The notes under the pieces are model-generated. The model was not told the origin of the DNA. It searched no databases and saw only the letters and a list, made by a program, of their open reading frames with translations. The translations under genes and the position numbers were made by a program. Positions 15,983 to 60,490 of a stretch of DNA of 64,000 nucleotides are shown here, piece by piece (position 1 is the stretch's first letter; each line of letters begins with the position of its first letter). Where the stretch lies: NCBI GenBank assembly GCA_902784805.1, contig CACZWD010000012.1, forward strand, positions 11,133-75,132, in the 5' to 3' direction. The DNA is from an uncultured Ruminococcus sp. (GTDB lineage: Bacteria > Bacillota > Clostridia > RUG12999).

Positions 15983-18077
15983 CTACTGTAAGCTTCTTGT
16001 AATGGAAATAACGCCGCTGACATTTTTAAGCTTTGCGATAAGCTCGTCAATTTGCTCCGCGGTGCTAACTTCAACACCTACATTTACAAGAGCCTCCATA
16101 TTTTTATTAACTCTTGCGTTAAAGGCATTTGAAGGTATTTTCATGGTTGAAATAATATTGATTATATCAGCAAGAAGCCCCGTTCTGTCATCAGCGACAA
16201 TAAGAAGATCGGCACAATAGCGCTCGGCGGGAGAAGCGTTTTCCCAGCTGACGTTTACTATACGGTTTTCACTCTGTTCGGAATCAATGTTTTTAACATT
16301 TACGCAATCTCTTCTATGGACTGATACACCTCTGCCACGGGTAATGTAGCCTACAATATCATCGCCCGGAATAGGTCTGCAACATTTTGAAAGACGTACA
16401 AGACAACCTTCAAGCCCTTCGACAATAACACCGCTGCCACCGCCTTGGTTTTTTGCGCTGTGACGGCTGCCGACAGCGGGAGCTTCGATTTTCTTTGTAC
16501 GGCGTTTATATTCCTCCCGCATTTTCTGAACGACCTTTGCGGCAGGTATTCCGCCAAAACCGATTGCGCTGTATAAGTCGTCTGTTGTCTGAAAATTGTT
16601 TTTACGCAAAATTTGCTCAATGGTTTCGGGAATCATAAGCTGTTGAGCGGTGTAACCGGTCTTTTTTATTTCGTGCTCAAGCATATCTCTGCCAAGGGAA
16701 ATATTTTCCTCTCTGCCCTCTTTTTTAAACCATTGATTTATTTTTGTTCTTGCGCTGCTTGTTTTTACAATATTAAGCCAGTCACGGCTCGGACCGTGTT
16801 TACCTTTGCGCCCATTGTTTTGTTGCCGATTGCCGAGTGTATGCTGTACGCGAAATCAATGGGGCATGAACCTTTCGGGAGCGGAACGACGTCACCTTTC
16901 GGCGTAAAAACATATACCTGGTCGCTGAACATATCGACCTTTAAAGCGCGCATAAATTCGTTACTGTCGGGAACTTCATCCTGAAGCTCCATAACCTTTC
17001 GTATCCATGCAAGCTTTTCGTCATCGCCCGTGGTTTTGCCTTTTAAGCCCTGTTTGTATTTCCAATGCGCGGCGATACCGTATTCGGCAGTTCTGTGCAT
17101 TTCCTGTGTGCGTATCTGAATTTCAAAATGTGAAGCGACTGATACATATTTGCCTTTGCCATTGAGATATAATCCTTTATTCTGCCCGGAAGCGGACGGT
17201 ATATTTCATGAACAGCGCCAAGCACAGCATAGCAATCGGAAATGGTTTCGACAATTACACGAATCGCAAAAATATCGTAAATTTCGTCAATTGTTCTGCC
17301 CTGCATAAAAGTCTTTTTAAATATGCTGTAATTGTGCTTAACTCTGCCGGCAATAGATAAAACTTTTATATCGATTTCGTTAAGCTTTTTCATTATTTTA
17401 TCTATATTATACTGAATAAAATCATCATTACGGCTTAATTTTTCGGCAACCTGAGATGTGATCTCATTGTAAGCAATAGGGTCAAGATGCTTTAAGGACA
17501 AATCCTCAAGCTCCGCTTTAACTTTAAAAATACCGAGTCTGTCGGCGATGGGAGCGTAAACCTCAATGGTTTCAAGCGATTTTTTAAGCTGCTTGTGAAG
17601 GGGCTGCGCGTCTAATGTACGCATATTATGAAGTCTGTCGCAAAGCTTTACAAGCACGATACGAACATCTTTCGCGGTCGCAATAAACATTTTGCGTAAG
17701 TTTTCGACCTGCTCCTCCTCTTGGGTTGTAAACTTAATTTTTCCAAGCTTTGTAACGCCTTCAACCATATCTGCAATTTCGGGAGAAAAAAGCTTCGCGA
17801 CTTCTTCGTGTGTAACCTCCGTATCTTCGATTACATCATGTAAAAGCCCCGCAATAACGGTATCTTTATCAAGCGAGAGGTCGGCAATTATGCGCGCGAC
17901 TTCAAGAGGGTGACAAATATAGGCTTCGCCCGAAAGCCGTTTTTGCCCCTTATGAGCTTTTTCCGCAAATTCATACGCGCGTTTTATTTCTTTTGTATCC
18001 TCCGGTGAATAAAGCGTTTTTGCCTTATTTAAAAGGTCGGCGAAAAGCTCATCCGGATTTGTGTTTACCATACTCAT
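15983..18077 (-). pseudogene. relA: bifunctional (p)ppGpp synthetase/hydrolase RelA/SpoT homologue, disrupted by two internal frame-shifting deletions
   Basis: Three consecutive ORFs cover the gene: 17043..18077 (HD hydrolase plus most of the synthetase), 16765..17100 (end of synthetase plus TGS) and 15983..16684 (helical/ACT). At about 17128 the sequence jumps from ...NMYQSLH to FEIQIRTQEMHRTAEYGIAAHWKYK in another frame. At about 16796 it jumps from ...GAKVN to GPSRDWLNIVKTSSARTKINQWF in another frame. Confidence 0.85.
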
Positions 18078-20098
18078 TCGGTTTTAATACCTCTCTCTTT
18101 TTTAAAGTTTTTAAGTGTGATTGAAGATTCAAGGTCAACCTTCCCTGCTGTATTTTTAATATATATATCATATATTCCGTTGTTTTCGGCATAAGTGAGA
18201 AGCTTCATTTCGGCAAAGATATCCATACAAAGCCGCAATTTTTGCTCAGGGAAATAACATCCCTCCGCAAGTGAAAGCCTTCTTGCCAAAAGCGCCTCTT
18301 TTATACGCAGAAAATCATTCCTGCAGCTTCCCTTTATAATGCTGTAAAGACGCGCGAAATCAAGCCTTTTGGGTACAGCATCGGTTTCTTTTTGTAATGC
18401 CGAATATTTAAAATCTCTTAAAACAAATTGCACACGGCTTATATCATTCCATGTATTAAGCGTAAGATTGCCGATTATATCAATGGTATCGCCGGAAATT
18501 ATGAGGTCTGAGTCCTGTCCCATACCAAACCCGATAGCGTCAAAATAAACTCCGTTTTTTTCAAGAGAAAAACGCAAATGCTTACCGTCTCCAAGAAGCC
18601 TGTAACCCATAATCTTGCATGCACCGACAGTAAAAACCGGAAGCGGATTGCCCGTTCCGCAGGGTTCAAAAATCTTAAGTTCCCGCGCGACCTCGGCAGA
18701 TATATATTTACTCGGAATTTCAAAATCGGCTTTAAGAACAACTCTTTTCCCTTCGGGCGGAAGAAGTCCTTCAGCGTATGCGTTGATTTTTTCATCAAGC
18801 AGTTCAAGATTTTCTTCCGGAAGCGTAAGCCCCGCCGCAAGAGCGTGTCCGCCGTATTTTATAAAGATATCTCCGCAGGCACTCATTGCCTCAAAAAGAT
18901 TAAATCCCTCAACACTTCTGCCCGAGCCTTTTGCTATGCCTTCATTTACGGTTATGAGAAGACACGGTTTTGAATATTTATCGGATATTTTTGATGAAAC
19001 TATACCTATTATGCCACTGTGCCATTCTTTTCCCCACACAACAAGAACAGGTTTTTTCTTATAGCTTTTGTCATTTTCTATTATATTTATTACATCATCA
19101 AAAATTTCTTTCTCAATTTCCTGGCGGTGCCGGTTTTCCTCCATAAGAAGCGTTGAAAGCTTTTCGGCCTCAGGTTTGCTTTTGCTGAGCAGAAGCATTA
19201 CGCCGTAGCAGGCATCGCCTATTCTTCCCGCGGCGTTTATTTTTGGCGCAAGACCGTAGCCTATACCCGAAACGGTTGAAACCTTATCGCCGATACCGAT
19301 ATAGTCTATAAGCGTTTTAAGACCTATATTGTTTGTGTTTTTTATATGCTCAAGACCATAGTTTACGATAATGCGGTTTTCACTTTCGAGACTTACAACA
19401 TCGGCAATTGTGCCGAGAGCAATAAGCTCACCCAGCATATCAAGAATTTTTTTCTGATTTCCTCCTTCAAGGGCTGAAATCAGTTTGAATACAACGCCGA
19501 CTCCCGCAAGAGCTTTAAACGGATATGAACAATCCGGCTGTGTCGGGTTAATGACCGCACAGCAGTCGGGTACGGTTTCTTTACATCTGTGGTGGTCGGT
19601 AACAATAACGTCCATACCCATTTCACATATCGCGTCAATTTCTTTGCAGGCGGTAATTCCCGTATCAACGGTTATAACAAGCGTTGTGCCCGTTTCAAAC
19701 AAGCTGCAAAGCGCGCCTGTATTTATGCCGTAGCCCTCCGAAGAACGGTCAGGTATGTAATAATTCACAATGCCGCCTTTTGAGCGAAGATACAAAAGGA
19801 GCGCGGAAACGGAGGTTATGCCGTCAACGTCATAATCACCGTAAATTGTTATATGTTCTTCATTTTCAAGAGCAAGATTTATACGGTTTACGGCTTTATC
19901 CATATCCTTCATCAAAAACGGAGAGAGCAAATCATCCACGGATTTTGCGCAGAATTTTTCAAATTCCTTTGCACTTTCAATGCCTCTTGAAAACGCAAGA
20001 GCCGTGGTGACGGGATTTTTGCCCGTTTCGCGCGCAAGCCTTCTGACCTGCGGCGTGTCGGATAAATCTTCGCCGACAATCCAATCATATCTGTTCAT
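18074..20098 (-). CDS. recJ: single-stranded-DNA-specific exonuclease RecJ
   Basis: 674 aa. DHH-family motifs GDYDVDGITS, TVDTGI and VTDHH, plus a DHHA1 region with GGHALAAG. The 4-nt overlap with relA suggests an operon. Confidence 0.9.
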   Translation of the reverse strand: MNRYDWIVGEDLSDTPQVRRLARETGKNPVTTALAFSRGIESAKEFEKFCAKSVDDLLSPFLMKDMDKAVNRINLALENEEHITIYGDYDVDGITSVSALLLYLRSKGGIVNYYIPDRSSEGYGINTGALCSLFETGTTLVITVDTGITACKEIDAICEMGMDVIVTDHHRCKETVPDCCAVINPTQPDCSYPFKALAGVGVVFKLISALEGGNQKKILDMLGELIALGTIADVVSLESENRIIVNYGLEHIKNTNNIGLKTLIDYIGIGDKVSTVSGIGYGLAPKINAAGRIGDACYGVMLLLSKSKPEAEKLSTLLMEENRHRQEIEKEIFDDVINIIENDKSYKKKPVLVVWGKEWHSGIIGIVSSKISDKYSKPCLLITVNEGIAKGSGRSVEGFNLFEAMSACGDIFIKYGGHALAAGLTLPEENLELLDEKINAYAEGLLPPEGKRVVLKADFEIPSKYISAEVARELKIFEPCGTGNPLPVFTVGACKIMGYRLLGDGKHLRFSLEKNGVYFDAIGFGMGQDSDLIISGDTIDIIGNLTLNTWNDISRVQFVLRDFKYSALQKETDAVPKRLDFARLYSIIKGSCRNDFLRIKEALLARRLSLAEGCYFPEQKLRLCMDIFAEMKLLTYAENNGIYDIYIKNTAGKVDLESSITLKNFKKERGIKTE

Positions 20099-20146
20099 AA
20101 TTTACAACCGTTCTTTCTTAAAAAATTGACGAAAAAGCGTGTGCGG

Positions 20147-20590
20147 CTATTTTTCAAGAGCCATAATTTTATTTACTCTTTCAGCATGCCTTCCACCAAG
20201 AAAATCGGCGTTAAGCCAGCTTTTAACAATGCATTTCGCAAGCTCACTGCCCGTGATTCTCGCACCCAAAGCGATTACATTCGCATTGTTGTGTTCTGCC
20301 GCCATCTGCGCGCTGAAGGTATCGGTACAATGCGCGCACCTTATGCCGTTTATTTTGTTTGCCGCGATTGACATACCTATACCTGTTCCGCAAATTAGTA
20401 TGCCTTTTTTACATTCGCCGCCGGTGATTTTTTCACAGAGCGTTTTCGCGATATCGGGATAGTCAACGCTTGCGTTGCTGAAACAGCCGCAGTCAACAAC
20501 TTCAAAACCGAGTTCCGTAAGCAGCTCCGAAATTTGACCTTTTAACTCAAAGCCTCCGTGGTCACAGCCTATTGCGATAAGTTTACTCAT
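20147..20590 (-). CDS. rpiB: ribose-5-phosphate isomerase B
   Basis: 147 aa in the LacAB/RpiB family: IAIGCDHGGFELK ... GILICGTGIGMSIAANK. Confidence 0.9.
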   Translation of the reverse strand: MSKLIAIGCDHGGFELKGQISELLTELGFEVVDCGCFSNASVDYPDIAKTLCEKITGGECKKGILICGTGIGMSIAANKINGIRCAHCTDTFSAQMAAEHNNANVIALGARITGSELAKCIVKSWLNADFLGGRHAERVNKIMALEK

Positions 20591-20619
20591 TTTTAAACCG
20601 TACCTCTTTTCGTAAAAAA

Positions 20620-21339
20620 TTATTTTTCCTTTGCTTCTTTTTCTCTTTCCGCCTGAGATTTTCTTAAATATTCCGCGTTAAGCGTGTCGGCGCTTGCCGT
20701 TTCGCCCCGCAGAGCTTTTTCATACGCTGCAAGCGCAACGCTTGACGCTCTTTGAGAGTTATTGTTAAAGCCCGCGAAAACCGCGGTTTTTCCAAGTTCT
20801 TTAAGCCTTTCAAGATTTGGTTTAACTCCGTCACCCAAAAAAAGCACTTTTTTGTTTTTAAGAGCTTTCATTTCGTTTATAACGGTATCTATTCCGACCG
20901 CTCTCGGTGGAACAACGGTTTTTAAAGAATAATTATTTCCAGAAGAAACTAAGTTTCTTTTATATACGGCATTATATACCTGCCCGGCACGCGCGTCCAT
21001 AAGGGGGCAGATAAGACAGTCGGTAAACTGTACGTTTCTTGCCATAGCCTCAAGTGTGCTGACAGCAATCACAGGTTTTTTTTCGGCAAAGGCAAAGCCT
21101 TTTACGGCGGCAATGCCTATCCTGAGACCTGTAAAAGAGCCGGGACCGTTTGTTACGGCAAAAACATCAATATCTTTTATGCTGAGCGCAAGAGCTTTTA
21201 AAAGCGAGTCGATAAGAGGCATGAGCTTTTGTGAGTGTGTCAGCCCGTTTATAAGTGTATATTCGCCGAGAAGCGCGCCGTCATCAATTACAGCCGCCGA
21301 ACAAACAAGGCTTGAGGTATCTATCGCTAAAATTTTCAT
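20620..21339 (-). CDS. tsaB: tRNA t6A37 biosynthesis protein TsaB (YeaZ)
   Basis: 239 aa. Contains MKILAIDTSS and GPGSFTGLRIG. It overlaps tsaE by 4 nt. Confidence 0.88.
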   Translation of the reverse strand: MKILAIDTSSLVCSAAVIDDGALLGEYTLINGLTHSQKLMPLIDSLLKALALSIKDIDVFAVTNGPGSFTGLRIGIAAVKGFAFAEKKPVIAVSTLEAMARNVQFTDCLICPLMDARAGQVYNAVYKRNLVSSGNNYSLKTVVPPRAVGIDTVINEMKALKNKKVLFLGDGVKPNLERLKELGKTAVFAGFNNNSQRASSVALAAYEKALRGETASADTLNAEYLRKSQAEREKEAKEK

Positions 21340-21782
21340 TTTTTAAGCTCGCTCCTTCCGGTTAAATTTTCGGTAATACGTCTGAAATTTTCGCCTTTTA
21401 AGGAATCCTTTTCAATAGTAATATCAATAAATCTTTTCGCGGGATAGTTTTTAAGAAGTTCGGGCCATTCCACAAGACTTATGCCACTGCCGTCCAGAAA
21501 CTCGTCAAGCCCCGCGTCATAAAGTTCATCTTCGTTTTCAAAACGGTAGAGGTCAAAATGGTAAATCGGCGGATTATCGCCGTAGATATTCATAATGGCG
21601 AAAGTGGGGCTGCAAACGTCCTCGTCACAGCCGAAATACGCGGCAACGCCTCGCACAAAAACGGTTTTGCCGACTCCGATTTCACCGTGCAGACGGACAA
21701 TATCACCCGCTTTAAGCTTTGCCGCGAATTCCAACGCGGCGGCGACGGTTTGTTTTTCATTAAGGGTTTCCGTAACTTTCAT
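21336..21782 (-). CDS. tsaE: tRNA t6A37 biosynthesis ATPase TsaE (YjeE)
   Basis: 148 aa. P-loop GEIGVGKT, then SPTF and HFDLYR motifs. Confidence 0.88.
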   Translation of the reverse strand: MKVTETLNEKQTVAAALEFAAKLKAGDIVRLHGEIGVGKTVFVRGVAAYFGCDEDVCSPTFAIMNIYGDNPPIYHFDLYRFENEDELYDAGLDEFLDGSGISLVEWPELLKNYPAKRFIDITIEKDSLKGENFRRITENLTGRSELKK

Positions 21783-22012
21783 TTGATTATCAATCCCTTT
21801 TATATCTGTCAGATAAAAATACTGTACTATTATATTTTACCACATTTCGGCATAAATTTCAAGTTTTATTGTAAAAACAGGTATAAAAACAGGTATAAAG
21901 ATAAAATATTTTTATATTCGCAAAAAAATAAATGCCTTCCGTGAAGGGAGTGCAAGTTAGGGATTTTTACAAAATGAATTTATAGCGGCACTCTCCGAAG
22001 CGGAAACGAAAG

Positions 22013-22063
22013 AATACCACATCTTAGGTTTTAAGCCTTTGATGTGGTATTTTCTGTGTTTTT
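22013..22063. terminator. 11-bp perfect hairpin at the left edge of the AT-rich island (probable terminator; strand ambiguous)
   Basis: AATACCACATC / GATGTGGTATT (22013..22051). On the plus strand TTTCTGTGTTTTT follows. On the minus strand CTTTCGTTTCC follows, downstream of the R-M operon. Confidence 0.5.
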
Positions 22064-22111
22064 ATTCATAATGAGATTTTTAAATATACTAATACAATTG
22101 TGTATAATATT

Positions 22112-23044
22112 TTATTTTAGCCCAGCTTTGTAAGTTAATTCTTCAATAATTGCCCTATATTTCAAAATGTTTGGTTCGATATCTTTTTTGTTAGAGTTAA
22201 ACCAAATTTTATGAGCAGAATAATTTCCAAGTTCTTTAAAAAGAGCCATATCTTTTTTAGAATTTGCAGAGAGTGCCAATGTTGAATTTTGTGCTGCATT
22301 TTTTATTATTTTATCAAGGGTGTAATGATATCCATTTTTATCCATAATATCAGATTCAATATTATTATTTTGGTAAGACAAAACAAGAAGTCCTTCTAAC
22401 AGCCTTCGCATCATTACTGCTGTACAATCATATAGATTATTCTCATAGCTTGCGTTTATCTGTTTACACAAAGATTGAATGTTTGGCGAAAGTCCTTCAA
22501 AAATTACTGTTGAAAGAATTGTACCATCTTGTTCGATTTTCGTATCATCATCCCAATGATTAATATCGTCAATCCAATGTTTCATAATTGAAGACCATTG
22601 GCTCCAGTTTTTTGAAGATATGCTGATTCTGTTCACTTCAGTTTGAAAATCATAAATAATTTGATTTTCAGTCCAACCTGCCTTTCTAAGCGCACCTATG
22701 TATTGTATCATTATGTTTTCTGCATTAGAATCATTCCAATACGGATATGCTCGTTTGCATATGTTATTTATGTGCTTAATTTCCTGTTCAATCGGAGAAA
22801 GTGATTTGTTATAGGCAATACCTCCAAGCTTATTTAAAAACTCGTTTACAGCTTTCTTTGTAACGCAACCATTTTCATCATATCGAAAATAAGAAGCAAC
22901 ACCGATATCTATACACTCTTTCAGCAATTCGTATGGATATTTTGCAACGAGTTGACCAATATCAGATTTCCCTTTTTCATTAAGAGAAAAAGGATATATT
23001 TTTTCCGACACAATAGTTTCAATTTTCTTTTTCCCCACAAGCAT
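22112..23044 (-). CDS. hypothetical protein with a DUF4145-like C-terminal domain, last gene of the Type III R-M operon
   Basis: 310 aa, starting 22 nt downstream of res on the same strand. The C-terminal third (YENNLYDCTAVMMRRLLEGLLVLSY ... LGNYSAHK) resembles the DUF4145 helical domain seen in restriction/abortive-infection proteins. I do not recognise the N-terminal two thirds. The GTG at 23038 may be the true start. Confidence 0.55.
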   Translation of the reverse strand: MLVGKKKIETIVSEKIYPFSLNEKGKSDIGQLVAKYPYELLKECIDIGVASYFRYDENGCVTKKAVNEFLNKLGGIAYNKSLSPIEQEIKHINNICKRAYPYWNDSNAENIMIQYIGALRKAGWTENQIIYDFQTEVNRISISSKNWSQWSSIMKHWIDDINHWDDDTKIEQDGTILSTVIFEGLSPNIQSLCKQINASYENNLYDCTAVMMRRLLEGLLVLSYQNNNIESDIMDKNGYHYTLDKIIKNAAQNSTLALSANSKKDMALFKELGNYSAHKIWFNSNKKDIEPNILKYRAIIEELTYKAGLK

Positions 23045-23066
23045 TCCTCATTTCAATGAATCAGTA

Positions 23067-25313
23067 TTATTGAATAAACACCTCTATTGGCTTCCATACA
23101 TTCCTGTTGGTAACATCCTCTGACCATACCGTGTTAGAGAGATAAATCTGTGTTCCTACTGCCCGGACAAACCCCCATTTTATTTCCGGATGACGAGAAG
23201 CATAATCCTTTAACGCATCAAATTTACGGGGAGCAAATCTATCAACATTATTTGAACTGCCATCTGCAGTCATTCCGCCTTTTGCTTCAATAATCCATAT
23301 ATCGCCATTTTTAAGTTGAATTATGTAATCAGGGTAGAAGTTATTACGTCTGAACGCCTTGCGATATACAATGTTGAAATACTCATCTCCCTTATCACCG
23401 TTTTTATAACACCATTTAACGGGGTCATAATTTTCACACCAATCTTCAAAAGAAATCTCTGTAACTGTACGGTTTGGCTGAATGAGTATGTTATTGCCAT
23501 AATCGACAAATGGGTTCTTATTCATGATTTTAGTGCTTGGAATACGCTTATGCTGTTTGTAGTACTGTTCTCTTGGAATATACCAATCGGCAGTCACGAT
23601 ATCCGTTTCTTCAATATCTGCTATTCGGTCGGCACTGATATCGCTGAATACTTCTATAAGCCTTTCCCTATTATTAACAAGAAATGCGTTGTATTCCCGA
23701 AGACTCAGCCCATCTATCAGTTTATGCTCTCTTTCAAACGCTATTTCTTCTTCTGAAAGCAGAGACATTTGCATATCCATCGGTCCAAAAAGCACACGAA
23801 GAGCATTATTTGAAATGTTTTCATCAATTCCGATTGCCCTTGCTATACGACGCTTGGCATCACGGATTATAAAACCGTCATCGTGATTGCTTATTTGATG
23901 CTCGCCACCAAAAATTCTGTTTAATGACTTTATGTCATGGGTGGTTCTTGCAACGCCTTCAATGGCTGCTGTCTTAAGTTTCGTGCCAAAAACATAGCCT
24001 TTGCTTCTTTCCATTTCGTGCTTGTCCAGCTTACCGTTATGGTCAAGGTCACACTCTGAAAGCATCTGTTCACGAACAACTTTTACAACAGCCTCCGGAT
24101 TTACGGCATAACGGTCGCTTCCGTTAAGGGATTCTTTTTGCAACATAATGTTCGGAGCGTCAAATTTCCGTTTGTATAAATATGTATAGAAAGAATCGCC
24201 TATACTGTTTGTTAATCCCTCGACATATTCACTGTCAAGCGTATAAACATAGCAGTTGTCTATAAGTGGGCACTCATAATGTGTCCGTTCCGGCATACGG
24301 CGAACACGTCCCACGGTCTGAATGTTAAAGCGTTCAGTGCCGCCTTCACGTAGTTTTACAAGTATTTTTGCGCGAGGACAATCCCAACCAGTAGCAATAG
24401 CTTGCTTAAAGAGCAAAAATGCATATTGACCGTCTAATTTTTTTATTTCATCCGTATTATCGGGATGGTCTCCGCTAAACCATGAAGCCACAAGACCTGA
24501 GTTCTCAGAATAGCCCAAGTCATCTAATGCTCTTTTTACACGCTCTATCCATTCATCATAACCGTTTGGAAACTGTATCAGGACAAGCGGACGTATTTTT
24601 AAGTCGCGGCGGTCATATTCTGCCTGTATTTCTTTTCTCTTTTTGTCTGCCAATTCAAGAAGGAGAAGGTCATCATCAAGACTGTTGTTTTCTTCAATGG
24701 CTTTAGAAACTCCTTCGTTTATAGAAATTCCTGCTGCAATAAGTCCTTCTCCAATAACCTCATCGTCAGGTATAATTTCCGTATGGTCACCTCTGCTGAC
24801 GGGAGTTGCGGATATACGAAGAACATGAACAGGCTGAATATTACCTATATATTCATTTGCAGTTGCCTGATACTTATGTTCCTCATCTATAAGCATAAAA
24901 ATGTTAATATTGTTCGTATGGCAAAATAATACTTTTCCCATTAGGTCACGATGTTCACCTTCACGGAGAACAACATTCGATGTGCGATTTATTTTATCCC
25001 AGTTGATAAAGAATACTTTGCCACGGGGGTCGCTTTCGTTTATAAAAGCGTAAACATCTCCGTCCGGGATGCCGGATGTTACTTCTCTAAAACTGTCTTG
25101 AGACTGTTTTTCCAGTCCACCAGCACCGGGACACAACCACAAAAAGACCGTGTTGGGGTTCTCGTCAAGGTAATCATCAATAAATTTTGATACAAGAACT
25201 GTTTTTCCTGCACCCGTAGGAGCGGAAAGAACAATTTCCTCATGGTCTGCACATTTTGCCAGTAGATTTTCCTCGTGCTTTGCCTGAAAATCAAATAATT
25301 TCGCAGTAAACAT
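23067..25313 (-). CDS. res: Type III restriction enzyme Res subunit (SF2 helicase plus PD-ExK nuclease)
   Basis: 748 aa. Helicase motifs are I SAPTGAGKTV, II LIDEEHKY, III ISATP and VI QTVGRVRR. The C-terminal nuclease core reads YPDYII...IWIIEAKGG. The start overlaps the mod stop (TAATG). Confidence 0.85.
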   Translation of the reverse strand: MFTAKLFDFQAKHEENLLAKCADHEEIVLSAPTGAGKTVLVSKFIDDYLDENPNTVFLWLCPGAGGLEKQSQDSFREVTSGIPDGDVYAFINESDPRGKVFFINWDKINRTSNVVLREGEHRDLMGKVLFCHTNNINIFMLIDEEHKYQATANEYIGNIQPVHVLRISATPVSRGDHTEIIPDDEVIGEGLIAAGISINEGVSKAIEENNSLDDDLLLLELADKKRKEIQAEYDRRDLKIRPLVLIQFPNGYDEWIERVKRALDDLGYSENSGLVASWFSGDHPDNTDEIKKLDGQYAFLLFKQAIATGWDCPRAKILVKLREGGTERFNIQTVGRVRRMPERTHYECPLIDNCYVYTLDSEYVEGLTNSIGDSFYTYLYKRKFDAPNIMLQKESLNGSDRYAVNPEAVVKVVREQMLSECDLDHNGKLDKHEMERSKGYVFGTKLKTAAIEGVARTTHDIKSLNRIFGGEHQISNHDDGFIIRDAKRRIARAIGIDENISNNALRVLFGPMDMQMSLLSEEEIAFEREHKLIDGLSLREYNAFLVNNRERLIEVFSDISADRIADIEETDIVTADWYIPREQYYKQHKRIPSTKIMNKNPFVDYGNNILIQPNRTVTEISFEDWCENYDPVKWCYKNGDKGDEYFNIVYRKAFRRNNFYPDYIIQLKNGDIWIIEAKGGMTADGSSNNVDRFAPRKFDALKDYASRHPEIKWGFVRAVGTQIYLSNTVWSEDVTNRNVWKPIEVFIQ

Positions 25314-27277: not shown

Positions 27278-27529
27278 TCAAGTCAGAGTTTTGCAATCTC
27301 TTTCTGTATAAATTCCTGCATATACATTTGAAGTTGCCATGTGAAATAACTTCTCGATATCAAGCCCACGAAAATGCTCTTTCATTTCGTCTGTCATATT
27401 CTGTGTTCCGTACAGCCCTTCCGCATAATAGTAAAGAGCATCAAGAAATTCATAAAAATCCTTATCGGAAAGCAATTCATCCAAATACGGCATTGTTTTT
27501 ATGCGTTCCAAGTCAGTCTGCGGATACAT
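27278..27529 (-). CDS. hypothetical 83-aa protein upstream of mod (possibly a 5'-truncated remnant)
   Basis: It is co-oriented with mod, with a 60-nt gap and a weak RBS. The in-frame sequence upstream of the ATG still reads like protein (NIKNEGFFGLSEASVECLRRAKE) but has no start codon. Confidence 0.35.
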   Translation of the reverse strand: MYPQTDLERIKTMPYLDELLSDKDFYEFLDALYYYAEGLYGTQNMTDEMKEHFRGLDIEKLFHMATSNVYAGIYTERDCKTLT

Positions 27530-33143: not shown

Positions 33144-33171
33144 TCCGGCTCGGTTTTACTTTTCTTTCCGC
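33144..33171. repeat. 28-bp direct repeat, copy 2 (remnant of an RHH-gene 3' end abutting spoIID)
   Basis: Identical 28-mer. On the minus strand it reads ...EDSGKKSKTEPDD-stop, lying 13 nt from the spoIID stop codon. Confidence 0.85.
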
Positions 33172-47783: not shown

Positions 47784-48083
47784 CTATGAGATTGTGCTGT
47801 CAATATTGCGGATTATATATCCTTTTTCTTTTAAAAGTTCAGCGACATATTTTAAAAGTATAAGGCTGTTTATCCCGCTGTAACGCGGGTCGCTGTCGGG
47901 GAAATGCCCGCCTATATCGCCGAGCGCGGCGGCGCCGAGCAAAGCGTCAGCGATACTGTGAACAAGCACATCTGCATCGGAATGACCGAGCAAGCCTTTT
48001 TCGTAGGGTATGTTCACGCCGCCTATTATAAGCTTTCTGCCTTCGGTTAAAATATGTACATCGTAGCCGGTGCCAACACGCAT
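47784..48083 (-). CDS. ispF: 2-C-methyl-D-erythritol 2,4-cyclodiphosphate synthase IspF, 3'-truncated (99 aa instead of about 155)
   Basis: From ATG 48083 the product reads [10 protein letters not shown]...[34 protein letters not shown]...NIDSTIS-stop. It lacks the conserved C-terminal third (IAQ.PK...K.TT.E.LGF.GR.EGI). The proS start codon is only about 50 nt downstream, so no space remains for the missing part. Confidence 0.8.
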
Positions 48084-48085
48084 TT

Positions 48086-48790: not shown

Positions 48791-48796
48791 AAAAGC

Positions 48797-49443: not shown

Positions 49444-49472
49444 TTGACAAAAGATTATATATATGTTAAAAT
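49444..49472 (+). promoter_or_regulatory. promoter of the lysine-riboswitch operon (TTGACA-17-TGtTAAAAT)
   Basis: TTGACA at 49444..49449 and an extended -10 ending at 49472. Confidence 0.65.
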
Positions 49473-49479
49473 ATAGTCA

Positions 49480-49746
49480 TTGGTAGAGGTGCATTTTGTA
49501 AAAAGTAAGTTTTTGCCCTAAGGGTTTCCTTAAAGCTCGTTTCGCCGAGCGTGGCTTAAACCGAAAGGTGCAGGTGCCGAAGGAGGTTAACGCGAAAGTA
49601 ACTTTCCTGGCAAAATGAAATAAGATTCATTTTGCTGTCGCGGCGGTATGCCGCGGAGCGCTATCGTACTTTAAATATTTACCGTGCCATGCCGGTACGG
49701 CATAAAAGGAGTAACGATAGCCGCATATAAACGGCTATTTTTTTTA
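49480..49746 (+). promoter_or_regulatory. lysine riboswitch (L-box) with terminator/antiterminator expression platform
   Basis: The 5' GGTAGAGGTGC pairs with ...GCGCTATC (P1). Conserved L-box elements are TGCCGAAGGAGG and CCTGGCAAAATG...TTTTGCTGTCGCGG. The terminator ATAGCCG-N8-CGGCTAT plus T8 lies at 49716..49746. Its 5' arm can alternatively pair with the P1 3' strand. It sits upstream of dapA-dapB-lysA. Confidence 0.88.
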
Positions 49747-49771
49747 AACCGTAATAATTAGCAGGAGGATT

Positions 49772-50596
49772 TTGGATTATGAGCTTTTCGGTAAATTTAT
49801 CGATTGGCAGATTGAAAGCGGCGTTGACGCTCTTGTTGCCTGCGGTACAACGGGCGAAGCTTCTACGCTTAGCGAACAGGAGCATATGGACGCGATAAAA
49901 TACGCTGTCGAAAGGACGGCGGGCAGAGTTCCCGTTATTGCGGGAACGGGCAGTAACGACACCGAATTCGCGCTTGAGCTTACAAGGTTTGCGTGTGAAG
50001 CGGGAGCGGACGCCGTGCTTGTTGTAACGCCCTATTATAATAAAGCGACGCAAAACGGTCTTATAAAAATGTTTTCAACAATCGCGGACGAAAGCACAAA
50101 GCCTGTTATTCTTTACAATGTGCCGTCCAGAACAGGTGTGAATATCGCTCCGAAAACCTGCGCGGCTCTTGCCGAGCATGATAACATTGTTGCCGTAAAA
50201 GAAGCCAGCGGCAATATTTCACAGATTGCGGAAATCGCGCATCTTGTAAGAGGTAAAATGGATTTGTATTCTGGCAATGACGACCAGGTGCTTCCCGTGC
50301 TTTCTCTCGGTGGCAAAGGCGTTATATCAGTGCTTTCAAACATTATGCCGAAAGAGACGTGCGAAATATGCAGAAGGTTTTTCGCGGGTAACGTTAAAGG
50401 CAGCGCGGAGCTTCAGCTTGACCTTTTGCCGCTTATTGACGCTCTGTTTTGCGAGGTTAACCCCATACCCGTTAAAGCGGCAACCGCAAAAATGGGCTTT
50501 TGTAAAAACTATCTTCGCCTTCCTCTCACAACCATGGAGGAGGCTAATGCCGAAAAGCTTTACTCCATTATGCGAGGTCACGGTTTAATAAAATAA
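49772..50596 (+). CDS. dapA: 4-hydroxy-tetrahydrodipicolinate synthase DapA, lacking about 20 N-terminal residues
   Basis: The ORF begins at a TTG only 3 nt after GGAGG and reads (M)DYELFGKFIDWQIESGVDALVACGTTGE... The conserved first strand (..G...A.VTPF....G.) that precedes this segment in DapA is absent. The rest is full length, including the Schiff-base Lys context VAVKEASG. Confidence 0.8.
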   Translation: MDYELFGKFIDWQIESGVDALVACGTTGEASTLSEQEHMDAIKYAVERTAGRVPVIAGTGSNDTEFALELTRFACEAGADAVLVVTPYYNKATQNGLIKMFSTIADESTKPVILYNVPSRTGVNIAPKTCAALAEHDNIVAVKEASGNISQIAEIAHLVRGKMDLYSGNDDQVLPVLSLGGKGVISVLSNIMPKETCEICRRFFAGNVKGSAELQLDLLPLIDALFCEVNPIPVKAATAKMGFCKNYLRLPLTTMEEANAEKLYSIMRGHGLIK

Positions 50597-50614
50597 TAAA
50601 AAGGATTGAAAAAC

Positions 50615-51361: not shown

Positions 51362-51380
51362 ACGAAAGGTCTGATATGGA

Positions 51381-52676: not shown

Positions 52677-52684
52677 TTTATTTT

Positions 52685-52729
52685 AAAACAGCAGGTGAAA
52701 TGTTTTTCGCGCATTTCACCTGCTGTTTT
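52685..52729. terminator. bidirectional terminator after lysA
   Basis: 18-bp perfect stem AAAACAGCAGGTGAAATG / CATTTCACCTGCTGTTTT. Confidence 0.85.
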
Positions 52730-52756
52730 ATATGAAAAGAGAGATTTTTTATCACG

Positions 52757-53356
52757 TCAGCCTATAAACATTTGTGTCCAATAGTTGCCGCCCGTGACAT
52801 ATCCCACACCGATTTTTTTATATGAAGCATTTAAAATATTTGCTTTGTGTCCCGGAGAGTTCATCCAGGCGTTTACAACCTCTTTCGGAGTTCTTTGCCC
52901 CATTGCGATGTTTTCGCCCGCGTAGCGGTAAGAAAGCCCAAAAGCTTTCATCATTTCAAAGGGGGAGCCGTAGGTGGGGCTTGTATGAGAAAAGTATTTT
53001 TTGTCCTTCATATCCTGCGATTTATAGCGGGCGACGCGGCTAAGCTCCCAATCCTCCGTAAGAGCCGAAAGCCCGTATTTTGCGCGTTCCTCATTGACAA
53101 GCCTTACAACCTCTTTTTCATAGTTTGTTATATTCTCGTCAAGAGAAGGAATGTTTAAAACCTGTCCCGGATAAATAAGCTCAGGATTTGTAATCTGCTT
53201 GTTTGCCGCTATAATTTCACTCAAGCCCACTTTGTATTTTACGGCAATTTTCCACATTGTATCGCCCGGAGCAACCGTATGCGTGCCGGCTGCGGATGCG
53301 CAAAAAGACGTAATAAGCATAATAGCCGCAAAAATAAAAGTAATTTTTTTCTTCAT
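52757..53356 (-). CDS. secreted LysM plus CAP/SCP (YkwD-like) domain protein
   Basis: 199 aa with a signal peptide. LysM reads HTVAPGDTMWKIAVKYKVGLSEIIAANK...PGQVLNIP. The CAP domain has NAWMNSPGHKANIL. Confidence 0.8.
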   Translation of the reverse strand: MKKKITFIFAAIMLITSFCASAAGTHTVAPGDTMWKIAVKYKVGLSEIIAANKQITNPELIYPGQVLNIPSLDENITNYEKEVVRLVNEERAKYGLSALTEDWELSRVARYKSQDMKDKKYFSHTSPTYGSPFEMMKAFGLSYRYAGENIAMGQRTPKEVVNAWMNSPGHKANILNASYKKIGVGYVTGGNYWTQMFIG

Positions 53357-53497
53357 AATAAAACCTTCTTTCCTGTTTTGATTGCGCCGTATTTAGTATA
53401 ACATATCGGCGACGGTAATTTCAAATGCAATTTAAGTAAAAAGATACAGCATATTACAGCATTCAGATAAAATCAGGTTTGTTATCAGTCAAAAATG

Positions 53498-53526
53498 TTG
53501 ACTTTTAGGTAAAAATCCGATATAAT
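53498..53526 (+). promoter_or_regulatory. promoter TTGACT-17-TATAAT upstream of the 53703 gene
   Basis: TTGACT at 53498..53503 and TATAAT at 53521..53526. A leader of about 170 nt follows. Confidence 0.55.
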
Positions 53527-53702
53527 ATATTATGTATGTTTGTAAAATTTGTCGTTCGGAACGGTGATAAAAATGGCGGTTGATTATAATATGCTTAGAA
53601 ACCTTTTGATTGACAGAGGATTTATGATTTTAAGGCAGATTACATTATGGTTATATAACTTTGTTATGATAAAATTTTTAAACTATCGCAGGAGGGAAAT
53701 GA

Positions 53703-54785
53703 ATGAATACTCGAAAACTAAAAACTGCTGTATCTGAGTTTTCAAACAAGCAGAAAAATAATTCTGCATATTACGAGGAAAATTGGGCAGAGAGACAAGA
53801 ACGCAAGAAATATTATCAGTCATTTACCAGAGATAAACTCTTGAAAATGACAGAGGATGAATTTTACGAATATATAAGCAAGCTTTGGTCTATGCTTATT
53901 TGGGGAAATAAAAAATATATTGCGGATAAGCTAATTGATGACAATGGTTTTGACACTCTGAAAAGTGAACTCGCCGAATTGCTTTATGGTACAAGTCCTA
54001 TTGAAAAACGTTGGGATGTATTTTTAAAATCCATCAAAGGCATAGGACCTGCTACAATAAGCGAATTACTTACATATGCAAACCCTGAAGAATATGTTAT
54101 TTTTAATAAAACTACTATTCTTTGTTTTTCTTATCTTGATATACCGGATATGCCTAAATATAACTATCAATATACCGGGAAGAAGTATTCTGAAGTATGT
54201 GAAATTGCAAAAGGTATTTCTAAAGAGTTAAAAGAAGCAGGCACAGCAGATTATGATCTTTTAGCGGTTGACTATTTTATGTGGGATGAAATTCTTCCAC
54301 TTGCAGAGAAAAAAGAAGTTAAAACAGATGAAACCACTACCCAAAAAGATAAAACCGTAAGTGATAAAGATTCAAAGTCCTTGCACGACGAGATTAAAGA
54401 AAAGCTTGTTGCCATTGGTGAATTGCTTGGATTTGAAAGTCGTTCTGAAGTGAAAATCACAACGGGTGCTGTTGTGGATGCTGTTTGGGAAGCAAAAATC
54501 GGTAATATGGGGAAAGCTATATATGTATTTGAAGTGCAATCTAGAGGCTCTATTGACAGCTTGATTTTGAATTTGAAAAAAGCTCAAAGTAATGCGGCAG
54601 TACAAGCCGTCGTTGCTGTTGCAGATGAAGCACAACTTGCTAAAATAATTAGTGAGAGTAATGGAGTGATTGACGAAAAATCTTTGAGAACTTGGGATTC
54701 GGAAGATGTTTTAGCGGTTTATGATTCGCTTGTACGCGCACATGAATCTATAAATAAACTGGCTCTTGTACCGGAAAGCTTTTAG
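53703..54785 (+). CDS. hypothetical protein: HhH-like N-terminal domain plus restriction-endonuclease-like C-terminal domain (candidate stand-alone nuclease)
   Basis: 360 aa with GGAGGG 6 nt upstream, in a locally AT-rich region. The N-terminal part has IKGIGPATISELLTYANPEEYVIFN (helix-hairpin-helix-like). The C-terminal part has LHDEIKEKLVAIGELLGFES...VVDAVWEAK...IYVFEVQSRGS, a D...E.Q/K pattern like PD-(D/E)xK folds. Confidence 0.45.
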   Translation: MNTRKLKTAVSEFSNKQKNNSAYYEENWAERQERKKYYQSFTRDKLLKMTEDEFYEYISKLWSMLIWGNKKYIADKLIDDNGFDTLKSELAELLYGTSPIEKRWDVFLKSIKGIGPATISELLTYANPEEYVIFNKTTILCFSYLDIPDMPKYNYQYTGKKYSEVCEIAKGISKELKEAGTADYDLLAVDYFMWDEILPLAEKKEVKTDETTTQKDKTVSDKDSKSLHDEIKEKLVAIGELLGFESRSEVKITTGAVVDAVWEAKIGNMGKAIYVFEVQSRGSIDSLILNLKKAQSNAAVQAVVAVADEAQLAKIISESNGVIDEKSLRTWDSEDVLAVYDSLVRAHESINKLALVPESF

Positions 54786-54808
54786 GGCGTAATATAAGGA
54801 GAATAACT

Positions 54809-55159
54809 ATGCTTGAATTTATTTGCTATCCAAAATGTACGACTTGTCAGAAAGCAAAAAAATGGCTTGACGACAACAAAATTGAATATGAGCTTCGTGA
54901 TATAAAAGAGAATAATCCGAGTTTTGAGGAATTAGCCGCTTGGTATAAAACAAGCGGGCTTCCGTTAAAGAAATTCTTTAACACATCGGGACTTTTGTAT
55001 AAGTCAATGAAGCTGAAGGACAAGCTTCCCAAAATGTCAGAGGAAGAACAGTTAAAACTGCTTGCAACGGACGGAATGCTTGTAAAGAGACCGCTTTTAA
55101 CAGGTAAGGATTTTGTTTTGGTGGGCTTTAAAGAAAGCGAATGGAGCGAAAAATTGTAA
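54809..55159 (+). CDS. ArsC/Spx/MgsR-family thioredoxin-fold protein
   Basis: 116 aa. N-terminal CxxC (YPKCTTCQKAKKWL), then LVKRPLL. Confidence 0.82.
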   Translation: MLEFICYPKCTTCQKAKKWLDDNKIEYELRDIKENNPSFEELAAWYKTSGLPLKKFFNTSGLLYKSMKLKDKLPKMSEEEQLKLLATDGMLVKRPLLTGKDFVLVGFKESEWSEKL

Positions 55160-55266
55160 AAGAATTTCGGCTCGGAAGCCGTTTATATCCTATGCCGGTA
55201 CTCATTATCCGCACATATGACGGGAACGGAAAGCCCAATGCTATGAATGCCTTGTGGTTTGAATAA
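55141..55266 (+). pseudogene. remnant of a flavin reductase-like (flavoredoxin family) gene, first about 41 codons only
   Basis: MERKIVKEFRLGSRLYPMPVLIIRTYDGNGKPNAMNALWFE-stop matches the N-terminus (..YP.PV..V.T.D..GKPN.M..AW) of proteins of about 160-190 aa. It is followed immediately by the uvrB promoter. Confidence 0.6.
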
Positions 55267-55301
55267 GCGAGGACGCACAGATTTCAATCTGTATATTTTA
55301 C

Positions 55302-55350
55302 TTGACAATTCCTTAGGGATATGCTATAATATTTACCGAACAAATGTTTG
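55302..55350 (+). promoter_or_regulatory. uvrB promoter (TTGACA-17-TGcTATAAT) with a Cheo-type LexA box
   Basis: TTGACA at 55302..55307 and TATAAT at 55325..55330. CGAACAAATGTTTG at 55337..55350 matches the Gram-positive SOS box CGAAC-N4-GTTYG. Confidence 0.75.
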
Positions 55351-55368
55351 ATTTGATAGGAGAGAAGT

Positions 55369-57321
55369 ATGTCAGAATTTAAAGTGGTCAGCAGCTATAA
55401 GCCGACAGGCGACCAGCCGCAGGCAATAGATAAGCTTGCGCGCGGCGTTTTAAATAATATGAAAGCCCAGACGCTTATGGGCGTTACAGGCTCCGGAAAA
55501 ACATTTACCATGGCAAATATTATTGAAAAGGTGCAGCGCCCGACACTTGTGCTTGCTCATAACAAAACGCTTGCCGCCCAGCTTTGCAGCGAGCTTCGGG
55601 AATTTTTTCCGGATAGTGCCGTTGAGTATTTTGTTTCGTATTACGACTATTATCAGCCGGAAGCCTATATTGCGGCGACAGATACCTATATAGAAAAAGA
55701 TTCTTCCATAAACGACGATATTGACCGCCTGCGTCATTCCGCAACGGCGGCTCTTTTTGAACGCCGTGACGTGGTTATTGTTTCGTCGGTAAGCTGTATA
55801 TATTCTCTCGGTGACCCGATAGATTATAAAAATATGGTTATATCACTGCGTCCCGGTATGAGCTATGGCAGAAACAAACTGCTTTTAAAGCTTGTGGATT
55901 TGCAGTACGAAAGAAACGACATTGATTTCTCGAGAGGAAAATTCCGTGTAAGAGGCGATGTTGTTGAGATTTTCCCGGCGGGCGCGAGTGATAAAATAAT
56001 AAGAGTTGAGTTTTGGGACGAGGAAATTGACCGCATAAGCGAAGTTGAGCAGATAACGGGAAATGTAACAAGGACGCTCAGTCATGTCGCTATTTTTCCG
56101 GCATCGCATTATGTTACTCCCAGGGACAAGCTGGAGCTTGCCATAAAGGATATTGAACAGGAGCTTGAAAGCCGCTGCAAAGAGTTTGAGCAGCAGGGCA
56201 AGCTGCTTGAAAAGCAGCGTATTGAGCAGCGCACAAATTACGATATTGAAATGCTGCGCGAAATAGGCTTTTGTTCGGGCATAGAAAATTATTCGAGAAT
56301 ACTCAGCCGCAGAGAGCCGGGAAGTACGCCGCATACTTTGCTTGACTATTTCCCCGAAGATTATCTTTTAATTGTTGACGAATCGCATGTCACAATTCCG
56401 CAGGTAAGGGCTATGTATAACGGTGACAGAGCAAGAAAAACGAGTCTTGTGGAGTACGGTTTCAGGCTTCCTTCCGCGCTTGATAACAGACCGCTTAATT
56501 TTGATGAGTTTGAAAGCAAAATAAATCAGGTTATTTTTGTTTCGGCAACTCCCGCGGAGTATGAAAAAAGCCGAAGCTCACAGATTGCCGAGCAGATTAT
56601 ACGTCCCACAGGGCTTTTGGACCCCGAAATAAGCGTCCGTCCGGTGGAAGGACAGATTGACGACCTTATGGGTGAAATTTTTGAGAGAGCGGAGCGTAAC
56701 GAAAGAGTGCTTGTTACCACGCTTACAAAGAAAATGGCGGAAGCTTTGACGGATTATTTTACCGAACACGGCGTAAGGGTAAGGTATTTACATTCCGATG
56801 TTGAAACCATTGAGCGTATGGAAATAATAAGAGACCTCCGAATGGGAAAGTTTGATGTGCTTGTAGGTATAAATCTGCTTCGTGAAGGGCTTGATATTCC
56901 CGAAGTGTCGCTTGTGGCAGTTCTCGACGCGGATAAGGAAGGCTTTTTAAGAAGCGAAACCTCGCTTATTCAGACAATAGGCAGAGCCGCGCGAAATGCC
57001 GACGGCAAGGTTATTATGTATGCCGATACGGTAACGCCGTCAATGAAAAAAGCGATAGACGAAACAAACCGCAGACGTGAAATTCAGGACAGATACAACA
57101 AAGAGCACGGAATAATTCCGAAAAGTATAGTAAAAGAAGTGCGGGATATTATAGAAATAAGCAGACCGGGCGAGGACGAAAAACGCAAAAAGAAGCTTAC
57201 GAAATCAGAAAAGGTTAAGCTTATCGAACAGCTTACCGCAGAAATGCGGCACGCTGCGAAAGAGCTTGATTTTGAATATGCCGCCATGCTTAGGGATAAA
57301 ATAAAAGAACTTGAAAAATAA
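55369..57321 (+). CDS. uvrB: excinuclease ABC subunit B
   Basis: 650 aa. [14 protein letters not shown], and a C-terminal UVR motif. Confidence 0.96.
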
Positions 57322-57347
57322 TACAAAAATATAAGAGAGGCAAAAGT

Positions 57348-60176
57348 ATGTCACTTGAAAATATAAGGATAAAAGGCGCGAGAGTGCATAATCTTAAAAA
57401 TATCAATCTTACAATTCCGAGAGATAAGTTTGTGGTTATAACCGGACTTTCGGGTTCGGGAAAGTCATCTCTCGCGTTTGATACCATATATGCCGAAGGG
57501 CAAAGGCGCTATGTCGAATCGCTTTCGTCATATGCCAGACAGTTTTTGGGGCAGATGGAAAAACCCGATGTGGATTATATAGAAGGGCTTTCTCCCGCTA
57601 TATCAATCGACCAAAAAACCACGTCAAAAAATCCTCGTTCAACCGTTGGAACAGTTACGGAAATTTATGATTATTTAAGGCTTCTTTATGCCAGAATAGG
57701 TATTCCGCACTGCCCGAAATGCGGAAAGGAAATTCAGCAGCAAACGGTTGACCAGATGACAGATAAAATTATGGAGTATCCCGAAGGCACAAAATTTACT
57801 GTGCTTGCTCCTGTTGTAAGGGGTAAAAAGGGAGAACACGCGAAAATACTTGAAACCGCGCGCAAGAACGGTTATGTCAGAGTCAGAATTGACGGTGAAA
57901 CGCGGGAGCTTGATGAGGATATAAAGCTTGAAAAAACAAAAAAGCACAATATTGAAATTGTAATTGACCGTATTGCCGTAAGAGGTGATATTAAAAGTCG
58001 TCTTACAGATTCGATTGAAACAGCACTCGGAATAAGCGACGGGCTTGTGTTTATCAGCTTTCCGGGCGGTGACGAGCGGGTTTTCAGCTCAAGCTACGCT
58101 TGTCCAGACTGCGGAATAAGTATGCCGGAGCTTACGCCAAGAGCATTTTCGTTTAACAATCCCTACGGCGCGTGTCCTCACTGCGCGGGGCTTGGTTTTG
58201 TTATGGGTGTTGACCCGGCGCTTATAATTAAAAATCCGAAATTGTCAATTAAAGAAGGCGCAATTACGGCAAGCGGCTGGAGCAGCATTAATGATAAAAA
58301 ATCTATGGCATATATGTATCTTTCCTCACTTTCAAAACGTTACGGTTTTGACTTTGATACGCCGATATGCGAAATGAGCGAGGAAGCTGTAAACGCTATA
58401 CTTTACGGTACGCCGGAGGAGCTTGAATACACCTATGAGCATAAAAAATCCTCCGGAAGATTTATCGGAAAATTTGAGGGCATAATAAATAACCTGGAAA
58501 GAAGATACCATGAATCCACCTCCGAATGGACAAGGTCGGAAATCGAAGCTTATATGAGCACAACGCCGTGCAGTGAATGTAAAGGCGCGAAATTAAAACC
58601 CGAAATTCTTGCCGTTATGGTGGGCGGGCTTAATATAAAAGAGTTTTGCGATATGCCTGTCGATGAATCCAAAAAGTTTATTGAAAACTTAAAAATAACA
58701 GAACGTGAAGAAAAAATTGCGCATCAAATTGTAAAAGAGCTAAAAGCAAGGCTGGGTTTTCTTGTAAATGTCGGGCTTGATTATCTGACTTTAAGCCGGG
58801 GCGCAGGCTCGCTTTCGGGCGGCGAAGCTCAGAGAATACGCCTTGCCACACAGATAGGCTCCGGGCTTATGGGTGTGCTTTATATACTTGATGAGCCGAG
58901 CATAGGACTTCATCAGCGGGATAACGCCAAGCTTCTTGCGGCGCTGAGAGGTTTGCAGCAGCTTGGAAACACCCTCATTGTTGTGGAACACGATGAGGAT
59001 ACCATGTATGCCGCGGACTGGATTGTGGATATCGGTCCGGGCGCGGGCGTTCACGGCGGTGAAATTGTTGCCGAAGGTACGGTTGATGATATAAAGGCAA
59101 ATAAAAATTCCGTAACGGGGCAATATTTAAGCCGTGTCAAAAAGATTCCTGTTCCTTCAAAAAGGCGAAAAGGCAGCGGAAAATCAATAAAAATCTGCGG
59201 CGCAGCCGAAAATAACCTTAAAAATATTGATGTTGAGTTTCCGCTTGGAGTTATGACAGCCGTTACGGGCGTGTCGGGCAGCGGTAAAAGCTCTCTGATA
59301 AGCGAAATACTTTATAAAAGGCTTGCGAACGAGCTTAACGGAGCAAGACTTAAGCCCGGCAAGCATAAAGATATTACAGGTCTTAAATATCTCGATAAGG
59401 TAATAAACATTGACCAGTCGCCGATTGGCAGAACGCCGCGCTCAAACCCTGCGACATATACGGGTGTTTTTACAGATATACGAAATCTTTTCGCATCCAC
59501 AAATGACGCGAAAATGCGTGGTTACAGTCCTTCAAGGTTCAGTTTTAATTTAAGCGGAGGCAGATGTGAGGCGTGTTCGGGCGACGGTATTGTAAAAATA
59601 GAAATGCATTTTCTTGCGGATATTTATGTTCCGTGCGAGGTATGCAAGGGTAAACGCTATAACCGTGAAACACTTGAAGTAAAATATAAAAGCAAAAATA
59701 TTGCCGATGTGCTTGATATGACTGTTTCCGAAGGCGTTGAGTTTTTTGAAAACGTTCCGAGGATTAAAAACAAGCTCAAAACTATTGAGGACGTAGGTCT
59801 CGGATATATTAAAATGGGGCAAAGCGCCACAACGCTTTCGGGCGGCGAGGCGCAGCGAGTTAAGCTCGCTACGGAGCTTGCGAGAAAAGCAACGGGGAAA
59901 ACGATTTATATTCTTGACGAGCCGACCACGGGGCTTCATACCGCCGATGTGCATAAGCTTACAGAGGTTTTAAATAAGCTTGTTGACAGCGGAAATACTG
60001 TTATTGTTATTGAGCATAACCTCGATGTGATAAAAACAGCGGATTATATAATCGACCTGGGTCCGGAGGGCGGCAACAAGGGCGGCAGAGTTATAGCGAC
60101 AGGAACGCCCGAAGATGTCGCGAAGATTAAAAAATCTGAAACGGGTAAATTTTTAAAAAAAATTTTAACAGAATAG
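57348..60176 (+). CDS. uvrA: excinuclease ABC subunit A
   Basis: 942 aa. Two ABC modules ([18 protein letters not shown]), zinc-finger Cys clusters, and LSGGEAQR twice. Confidence 0.96.
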
Positions 60177-60252
60177 TATTCCGGAGCCTTTATCCAAGCG
60201 ACAAAGCGGCGGACGTTTAAAGTAACAAAAATATTAAAAATAAGCTGTTTCT

Positions 60253-60336
60253 ATTGACAAAGCGGTTTTTACGTGGTAAAATATGAAAAGTAAGGTTTAT
60301 GCGGTGTGCCTGACTGACATAGGTCGGGCGCTTTTT
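60253..60336 (+). promoter_or_regulatory. promoter (TTGACA-17-TGgTAAAAT) followed by a leader terminator-like hairpin
   Basis: TTGACA at 60253..60258 and TAAAAT at 60276..60281. Hairpin GTGCCTGAC-N8-GTCGGGCGC (60306..60331) is followed by T5, lying before the coding start at 60383. Confidence 0.5.
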
Positions 60337-60382
60337 AAAATTTATACCTTGCAAATTTTTTAAGGAAGGACGATGAAAGAAA

Positions 60383-60490
60383 ATGAAATTAGCATTTTCA
60401 ACACTTTGCTGTCCGAACTATGACTGGAAAGACATTTTCTCCATGGCGAAGGACCTTGGCTTTGACGGCATTGAAGTTTGCTCCCGATAA
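60383..60490 (+). pseudogene. detached 5' fragment (35 codons) of the TIM-barrel/AMP-ligase fusion gene
   Basis: MKLAFSTLCCPNYDWKDIFSMAKDLGFDGIEV then CSR-stop. This is a typical N-terminus of xylose-isomerase-like TIM-barrel (sugar phosphate isomerase/epimerase) proteins. The reading frame switches at about 60479 into ORF 60420..62870. Confidence 0.7.

Follow-up and report, generated by a model that had tools for sequence, protein, structure and literature searches.

Short sequence losses in conserved genes of an uncultured Ruminococcus genome are probably local assembly errors

The genes relA, ispF and dapA, as well as a TIM-barrel/ligase fusion gene, are broken or shortened in a 64,000-nt stretch of an uncultured Ruminococcus sp. 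genome (GCA_902784805.1, contig CACZWD010000012.1, positions 11,133 to 75,132 of the forward strand; this whole stretch is called the window below). Other assemblers produced contigs of this strain that contain every one of the missing segments and are otherwise identical. For this reason, we regard the deletions as local assembly errors at scaffold joins and not as mutations, with a probability of nearly 0.9. The original prediction listed at least six events that remove sequence, and it offered two explanations, deletion-biased decay of core functions or an assembly that systematically drops short segments. Five of the events (two in relA and one each in ispF, dapA and the TIM-barrel/ligase gene) were measured base by base. 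The sixth, in a flavin-reductase-like sequence at 55266, showed no indel. The evidence favours the second explanation, since five segments of the window and four segments elsewhere in the genome were recovered in same-strain contigs.

The metagenome-assembled genome (MAG) bin, with the working label G000, comprises 1.67 Mb over 66 scaffolds. Contigs of the same strain were located via neighbour genes that matched exactly, and their DNA was then compared with that of the bin base by base. The contigs came from ERZ27280356, assembled with MEGAHIT and bearing k141 in its contig names, from an assembly labelled STEW19 of sample SAMEA5383938 (ERZ28613006, Stewart 2019 rumen study), and from two assemblies with k87 contig names (ERZ1029114 and ERZ1029115). 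The scaffolds of ERZ28613006, with 55-nt overlaps and a 100-N gap, are metaSPAdes-like, and the k87 names agree with the k values listed for the co-assemblies of Stewart 2019. The contigs jointly covered positions 12175-61614 of the window at 99.9-100% identity, and the sole differences in segments were five missing pieces. The affected genes and their junctions are as follows.

15983..18077, minus strand: relA/spoT-type (p)ppGpp synthetase/hydrolase gene, read as open reading frames (ORFs) of 344, 111 and 233 aa after two deletions
17128/17129, minus strand: junction relA-1, 28 nt gone (codons TTVIGRGGTP), frame shift, microhomology 0 nt
16797/16798 to 16798/16799, minus strand: junction relA-2, 73 nt gone, frame shift, ambiguity 1 nt
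47784..48083, minus strand: ispF (MEcPP synthase, Pfam YgbB), ending after 99 codons, directly before proS
47790/47791, minus strand: junction ispF, 163 nt gone within the 3' third of the gene, microhomology 0 nt
49775..50596, plus strand: dapA (DHDPS), start codon and first 22 codons absent, reading frame opening at TTG
49774/49775, plus strand: junction dapA, 70 nt gone (4 leader nt, the start codon ATG and 22 codons), microhomology 0 nt
60383..62870, plus strand: fusion gene of a xylose-isomerase-like TIM barrel and an AMP-binding ligase, frame broken near the 5' end
60475/60476 to 60477/60478, plus strand: junction TIM/ligase, 35 nt gone, ambiguity 2 nt

The relA gene carries two of the five losses. 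Its whole product of 731 aa, with the Pfam domains HD_4, RelA_SpoT, TGS and ACT_4, is encoded on two contigs of other assemblies (L012 and L013), and one 731-aa RelA equals the fragments of the window exactly, apart from the two gaps. The segment lost at relA-2 consists of TGS-domain codons (GKLVPLSYELNNGDIVSIITSSSVH). The 344- and 233-aa fragments cluster with four whole 731-aa RelA proteins. Same-genus relatives have an uninterrupted RelA of 728-730 aa, and alignment of their DNA with the window shows two clean gaps in the latter, one of 28 nt and one of 73 nt. An exact look-up among ~15 billion proteins returned each of the three relA fragments, and likewise the truncated DapA, on this contig only. 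The left flank of relA-2 was not found in JGI metagenome contigs; the strain is not in that collection, so this search was uninformative.

A further observation concerns the place of the relA-2 break. G004:C151 (our L011), a contig of 2653 nt from another MAG, ends exactly on the junction base, and it begins at the first base common to the whole and the shortened relA forms. Such a start is the pattern expected of an allele branch, and it speaks for a population in the rumen in which deletion and intact alleles coexist and from which the assembler took the deletion path. For this account to hold, nine separate deletions would all have to be polymorphic, and several of these affect essential genes. 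The three other assemblies did not yield a single deletion allele, and no further contig encodes the broken proteins for which exact matches were sought. We therefore consider it extremely unlikely. No contig ends of genus relatives were found at the ispF and dapA junctions, so the coincidence is confined to relA-2. The MAG that holds C151 is the species representative; it has a relA of its own on scaffold C35, and C151 is a second, partial relA/lon-side fragment with 90% identity to our bin. The presence of this second fragment agrees with the 6% contamination estimate of that MAG.

The three other genes of the window gave the same picture. The loss at the 3' end of ispF had been noted before, and 163 nt are indeed gone; the deletion is internal, with the final 21 nt of the gene kept. 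The whole IspF (158 aa) is found on contig L016, and ispF is a single-copy gene in the MAG. The predicted loss of the dapA 5' end was confirmed in full, including the ATG and 22 codons, and whole DapA (295 aa) is present on contigs L016 and L017. The TIM-barrel/ligase fusion (Pfam AP_endonuc_2, AMP-binding and AMP-binding_C) has its whole 5' end on contig L015.

Losses of the same kind were detected on other scaffolds of the bin, in comparison with same-strain contigs.

Scaffold C14: truA, 54 nt missing
Scaffold C14: metY-like gene, 114 nt missing
Scaffold C14: intergenic region upstream of rpsB, 45 nt missing
Scaffold C27: secA, 48 nt missing in a conserved part

In total, ~125 kb of this genome was compared, yielding nine deletions and no insertion of at least 2 nt. 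All nine lesions are private to one assembly, as they are absent from 99.9-100% identical MEGAHIT (k141) and/or metaSPAdes-like contigs. The missing segments were also sought elsewhere in the bin and were absent, save for a repeat copy in the case of the event upstream of rpsB. This deletion falls in a repeat of 166 nt, another copy of which makes up the end of scaffold C17. In the 20 kb compared on scaffold C23, no deletion of this kind was observed.

The balance of changes speaks for an artefact. Comparison with ERZ28613006 gave zero mismatches in ~65 kb beside five deletions, a ratio that a natural mutation spectrum would hardly produce. In bacterial mutation spectra, substitutions are far commoner than deletions of such size. 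The same numbers bear on real, very recent deletions of 28-163 nt without microhomology, at about one per 14 kb compared, in a decaying sub-lineage or clone. The segments are truly absent from the deposited sequence, and nine of nine changes are deletions with no insertion, as a deletion bias predicts. Against this reading stand the missing substitutions in ~65 kb and the choice of targets: secA and the sole ispF copy are struck, and dapA is left without its start. The functions of secA, ispF and dapA are expected to be essential. Moreover, the junctions lack a direct-repeat signature, one of them sits at the end of a foreign contig and one in a repeat, the broken products that were looked up among ~15 billion proteins occur on no other contig, and a genus relative (G003, see below) is free of such events. 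Real deletions are thus very unlikely, and the decay of core functions put forward in the original prediction is likewise not supported. Shortened orthologues were also looked for in relatives; none were seen, and the same strain and the genus relatives have full-length genes.

A special case of real deletion is a clone in which end-joining-type deletions (28-163 bp, no microhomology) arose all at once across the chromosome, in essential genes as well. We give this scenario very little credence. If it were true, the clone would have been caught before any substitution separated it from its intact siblings, and the source might be, for example, cells dead or dying from extensive double-strand breaks, or the DNA of a defective sub-population.

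The junctions themselves bear no microhomology signature. Microhomology amounted to 0, 0, 0, 0, 0, 1, 2, 2 and 3 nt at the nine junctions (mean 0.9, about chance level), and there is no shared junction motif, in line with the original prediction. The deletions are 28-163 nt long, so that none is a single-base indel, again in line with the prediction. Their lengths are multiples of 3 in four of nine cases, one of nine is intergenic, and the GC fraction of the lost segments ranges from 0.22 to 0.64. Since microhomology, length, location and GC all vary in this manner, the placement is blind to frame, gene and sequence. Some junctions do coincide with sites that trouble assembly graphs, a point in favour of an assembly error: besides the foreign contig end at relA-2 and the repeat upstream of rpsB, six of 12 clusters of single-nucleotide polymorphisms relative to the MEGAHIT contigs are no more than 450 nt away from a junction, in zones that make up 8% of the sequence (p ~2e-4). 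Coincidence with graph boundaries was judged here from contig ends, repeats and such clusters in finished sequences, not from a contig-level assembly.

The record originates from a scaffolding short-read assembler and bears a k=100 signature. More than 20 pairs of scaffold ends of this bin dovetail by exactly 99 nt, which points to a final k of 100. The default maximum k of IDBA-UD is 100. The scaffolds also contain four N runs of 5-53 nt, and the combination of dovetails and N runs points to IDBA-UD scaffolds. The assembler is thus probably of the IDBA-UD type, as in the pipeline of the cattle-rumen MAG compendium. For the Stewart 2019 rumen compendium, each sample was assembled with idba_ud 1.1.3 (PMC6785717). 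As an observation apart, the flanks of the two ~50-N gaps (C3:42536-42585 and C34:26058-26110) are copies of one repeated element in opposite orientation, indicating scaffold gaps that were caused by repeats.

The bases were probably dropped along the following lines. The bin comes from a short-read metagenome and would have been built by a scaffolding assembler of the de Bruijn type, run up to a final k of 100, whose contig graph would have broken near strain polymorphisms or short repeats. Adjacent contigs would then be joined through read pairs and output end to end, and 28-163 bases between the contigs or at a contig edge would be dropped without Ns. The organism itself would hold whole copies of relA, ispF, dapA, secA and the other genes.

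Two more specific forms of this fault were considered and set aside. A plain error in estimating gap length may not be what went wrong, because the 5-N run on scaffold C23 stands for a true gap of 7 nt, which is a good estimate. A symmetric overlap-error model predicts equal numbers of duplications and deletions, and the compared ~125 kb contained zero duplications. Outside that portion, the bin does hold about ten short, perfect tandem duplications. Those with units of 21-80 nt lie at C5:51544, C17:21994, C30:700, C33:416, C51:3728, C55:3034, C11:31519, C46:18403 and C64:825. Several are near scaffold ends, and they may represent the mirror-image join error, in which an overlap is written twice.

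Removal of the segments after assembly, through gap closing, polishing, deletion of N runs or trimming in a contamination screen, would give an outcome that matches an assembler error, and the same-strain comparisons fit it equally well. Ns are absent from the joins but survive in four other gaps (5-53 Ns), in keeping with such editing. The surviving N runs nevertheless speak against a blanket removal of Ns, and the lost segments, given their GC spread, have no common composition or motif for a screen to recognize. In addition, the accessible text on the pipeline of the likely source study names no gap-closing or polishing step (PMC6785717). Post-assembly editing is very unlikely on these grounds, although slightly less so than real deletions.

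Several points weigh against an error of the assembler. The call was made by comparing assemblies with one another, not from reads over the junctions. The comparison cannot prove that the other assemblies share the source sample of the MAG. The name of the assembler is undocumented for this record, and like the source sample, it is our reconstruction. The well-estimated gap on C23 also counts here. Finally, the deletions are spread unevenly, and their rate beyond the sampled scaffolds seems lower in the comparison with G003.

This control genome belongs to the same genus; it is a rebuilt genome of 1.28 Mb in 19 contigs and was compared with our bin in both directions over ~680 orthologue pairs. 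The bin showed seven frame-splitting deletions of at least 25 nt (two in relA and one each in the TIM/ligase gene, miaA, a GGGtGRT-family gene, an esterase and an nrnA-like gene), and G003 showed none. The counts of 1-nt frameshifts and in-frame stops were similar in the two genomes. The density of deletions in this genome therefore exceeds chance, and the unusual lesion density of the original prediction was well observed. The comparison with G003 is the only basis for the following candidates.

G000 C32:23771: miaA, candidate deletion of 88 nt
G000 C34:13093: GGGtGRT-family gene, candidate deletion of 50 nt
G000 C39:33921: esterase, candidate deletion of 35 nt
G000 C42:2550: nrnA-like DHH gene, candidate deletion of 29 nt
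G000 C26:4509: NlpC/P60 protein without the signal-peptide core, candidate loss of 19 aa
G000 C10:33994: GPR-like endopeptidase, candidate loss of 22 aa

A metY paralogue at G000 C52:6844 aligns in two frames that join at one base, and it may be a further frame-breaking lesion.

Three features of the window are not of the deletion-artefact kind, as judged from the aligned assemblies. Two of them are ORFs.

55141-55266, plus strand: 41-aa ORF fragment resembling the N-terminus of a flavin reductase, between an arsC-like gene and uvrB
27278-27529, minus strand: 83-aa ORF with an ATG start

The translation of the 41-aa fragment is MERKIVKEFRLGSRLYPMPVLIIRTYDGNGKPNAMNALWFE. Its flavin-reductase identity is putative, and it has no Pfam match. 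Around its end at 55266, there is no indel relative to the contigs L015 and L016 of two other assemblies, and the fragment is identical in both; the remnant is therefore a feature of the strain itself. The 83-aa ORF had been listed as a possible remnant without a start. It has its ATG, is called identically in three other assemblies, and gave no Pfam match. The third feature, the region of the putative RHH stub at 33144, had also been listed as a possible remnant; it aligns gap-free and with 100% identity to ERZ28613006.

One of the other assemblies had a local fault of its own. One scaffold of ERZ28613006 (scaffold_10166, L013:6244-6343, corresponding to window positions 15344-15398) contains a 100-N gap between duplicated copies of the 55-nt overlap. 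This is a scaffold error of that assembly, and the gene call for a histidine phosphatase is lost there. An ABC-transporter ATPase is whole in our bin (291 aa, G000 C14:20476-21351) and is split into 162 and 127 aa in a MEGAHIT contig (L025:7432-8307) owing to a 1-nt difference.

If the deletions are assembly errors, they hold no biological novelty. Split, truncated or start-less genes of this genome may then be such errors, and they should not be read as pseudogenes, programmed frameshifts or lost pathways. This caution applies to relA, ispF, dapA, secA, truA and metY, and probably also to miaA, the GGGtGRT-family gene, the esterase and the nrnA-like gene. Errors of this type lower completeness estimates, and through them broken protein sequences enter public databases. 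Contigs of the same strain taken from other assemblies provide a cheap and effective control.

Deletion-biased reductive evolution is known in the recently host-restricted Mycobacterium leprae and Sodalis. The present genome resembles these cases in its many broken conserved genes and in the bias to sequence loss. Real decay, however, brings substitutions, stop codons and single-base frameshifts, is common to related strains, and spares essential genes. We found neither a substitution load, nor sharing among strains, nor a sparing of essential genes. Deletions by slippage or mediated by microhomology, as in lacI spectra, usually have direct repeats of several bases at their junctions. Their size range is alike, at tens to hundreds of bases, whereas the repeats measured here span only 0-3 nt.

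The closest parallel is offered by the local errors and collapsed gaps of IDBA-UD assemblies, in which tens to hundreds of bases are wrong or missing (Chen, Anantharaman, Shaiber, Eren, Banfield 2020 Genome Res, PMC7111523). As in those cases, the events are not reproduced by other assemblies and the genes look truncated or frame-shifted; the overlaps between scaffold ends are about as long as the largest k, and the sites lie at strain variants and repeats. The published errors, found with ra2.py, are defined by a lack of read support, whereas the present events are known from assembly comparison only. They also differ from those errors in general in that every event is a clean loss without Ns. 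Their density, at nine in ~125 kb of the sampled scaffolds, exceeds the one given in PMC7111523, 13 errors for a genome of 1.13 Mb.

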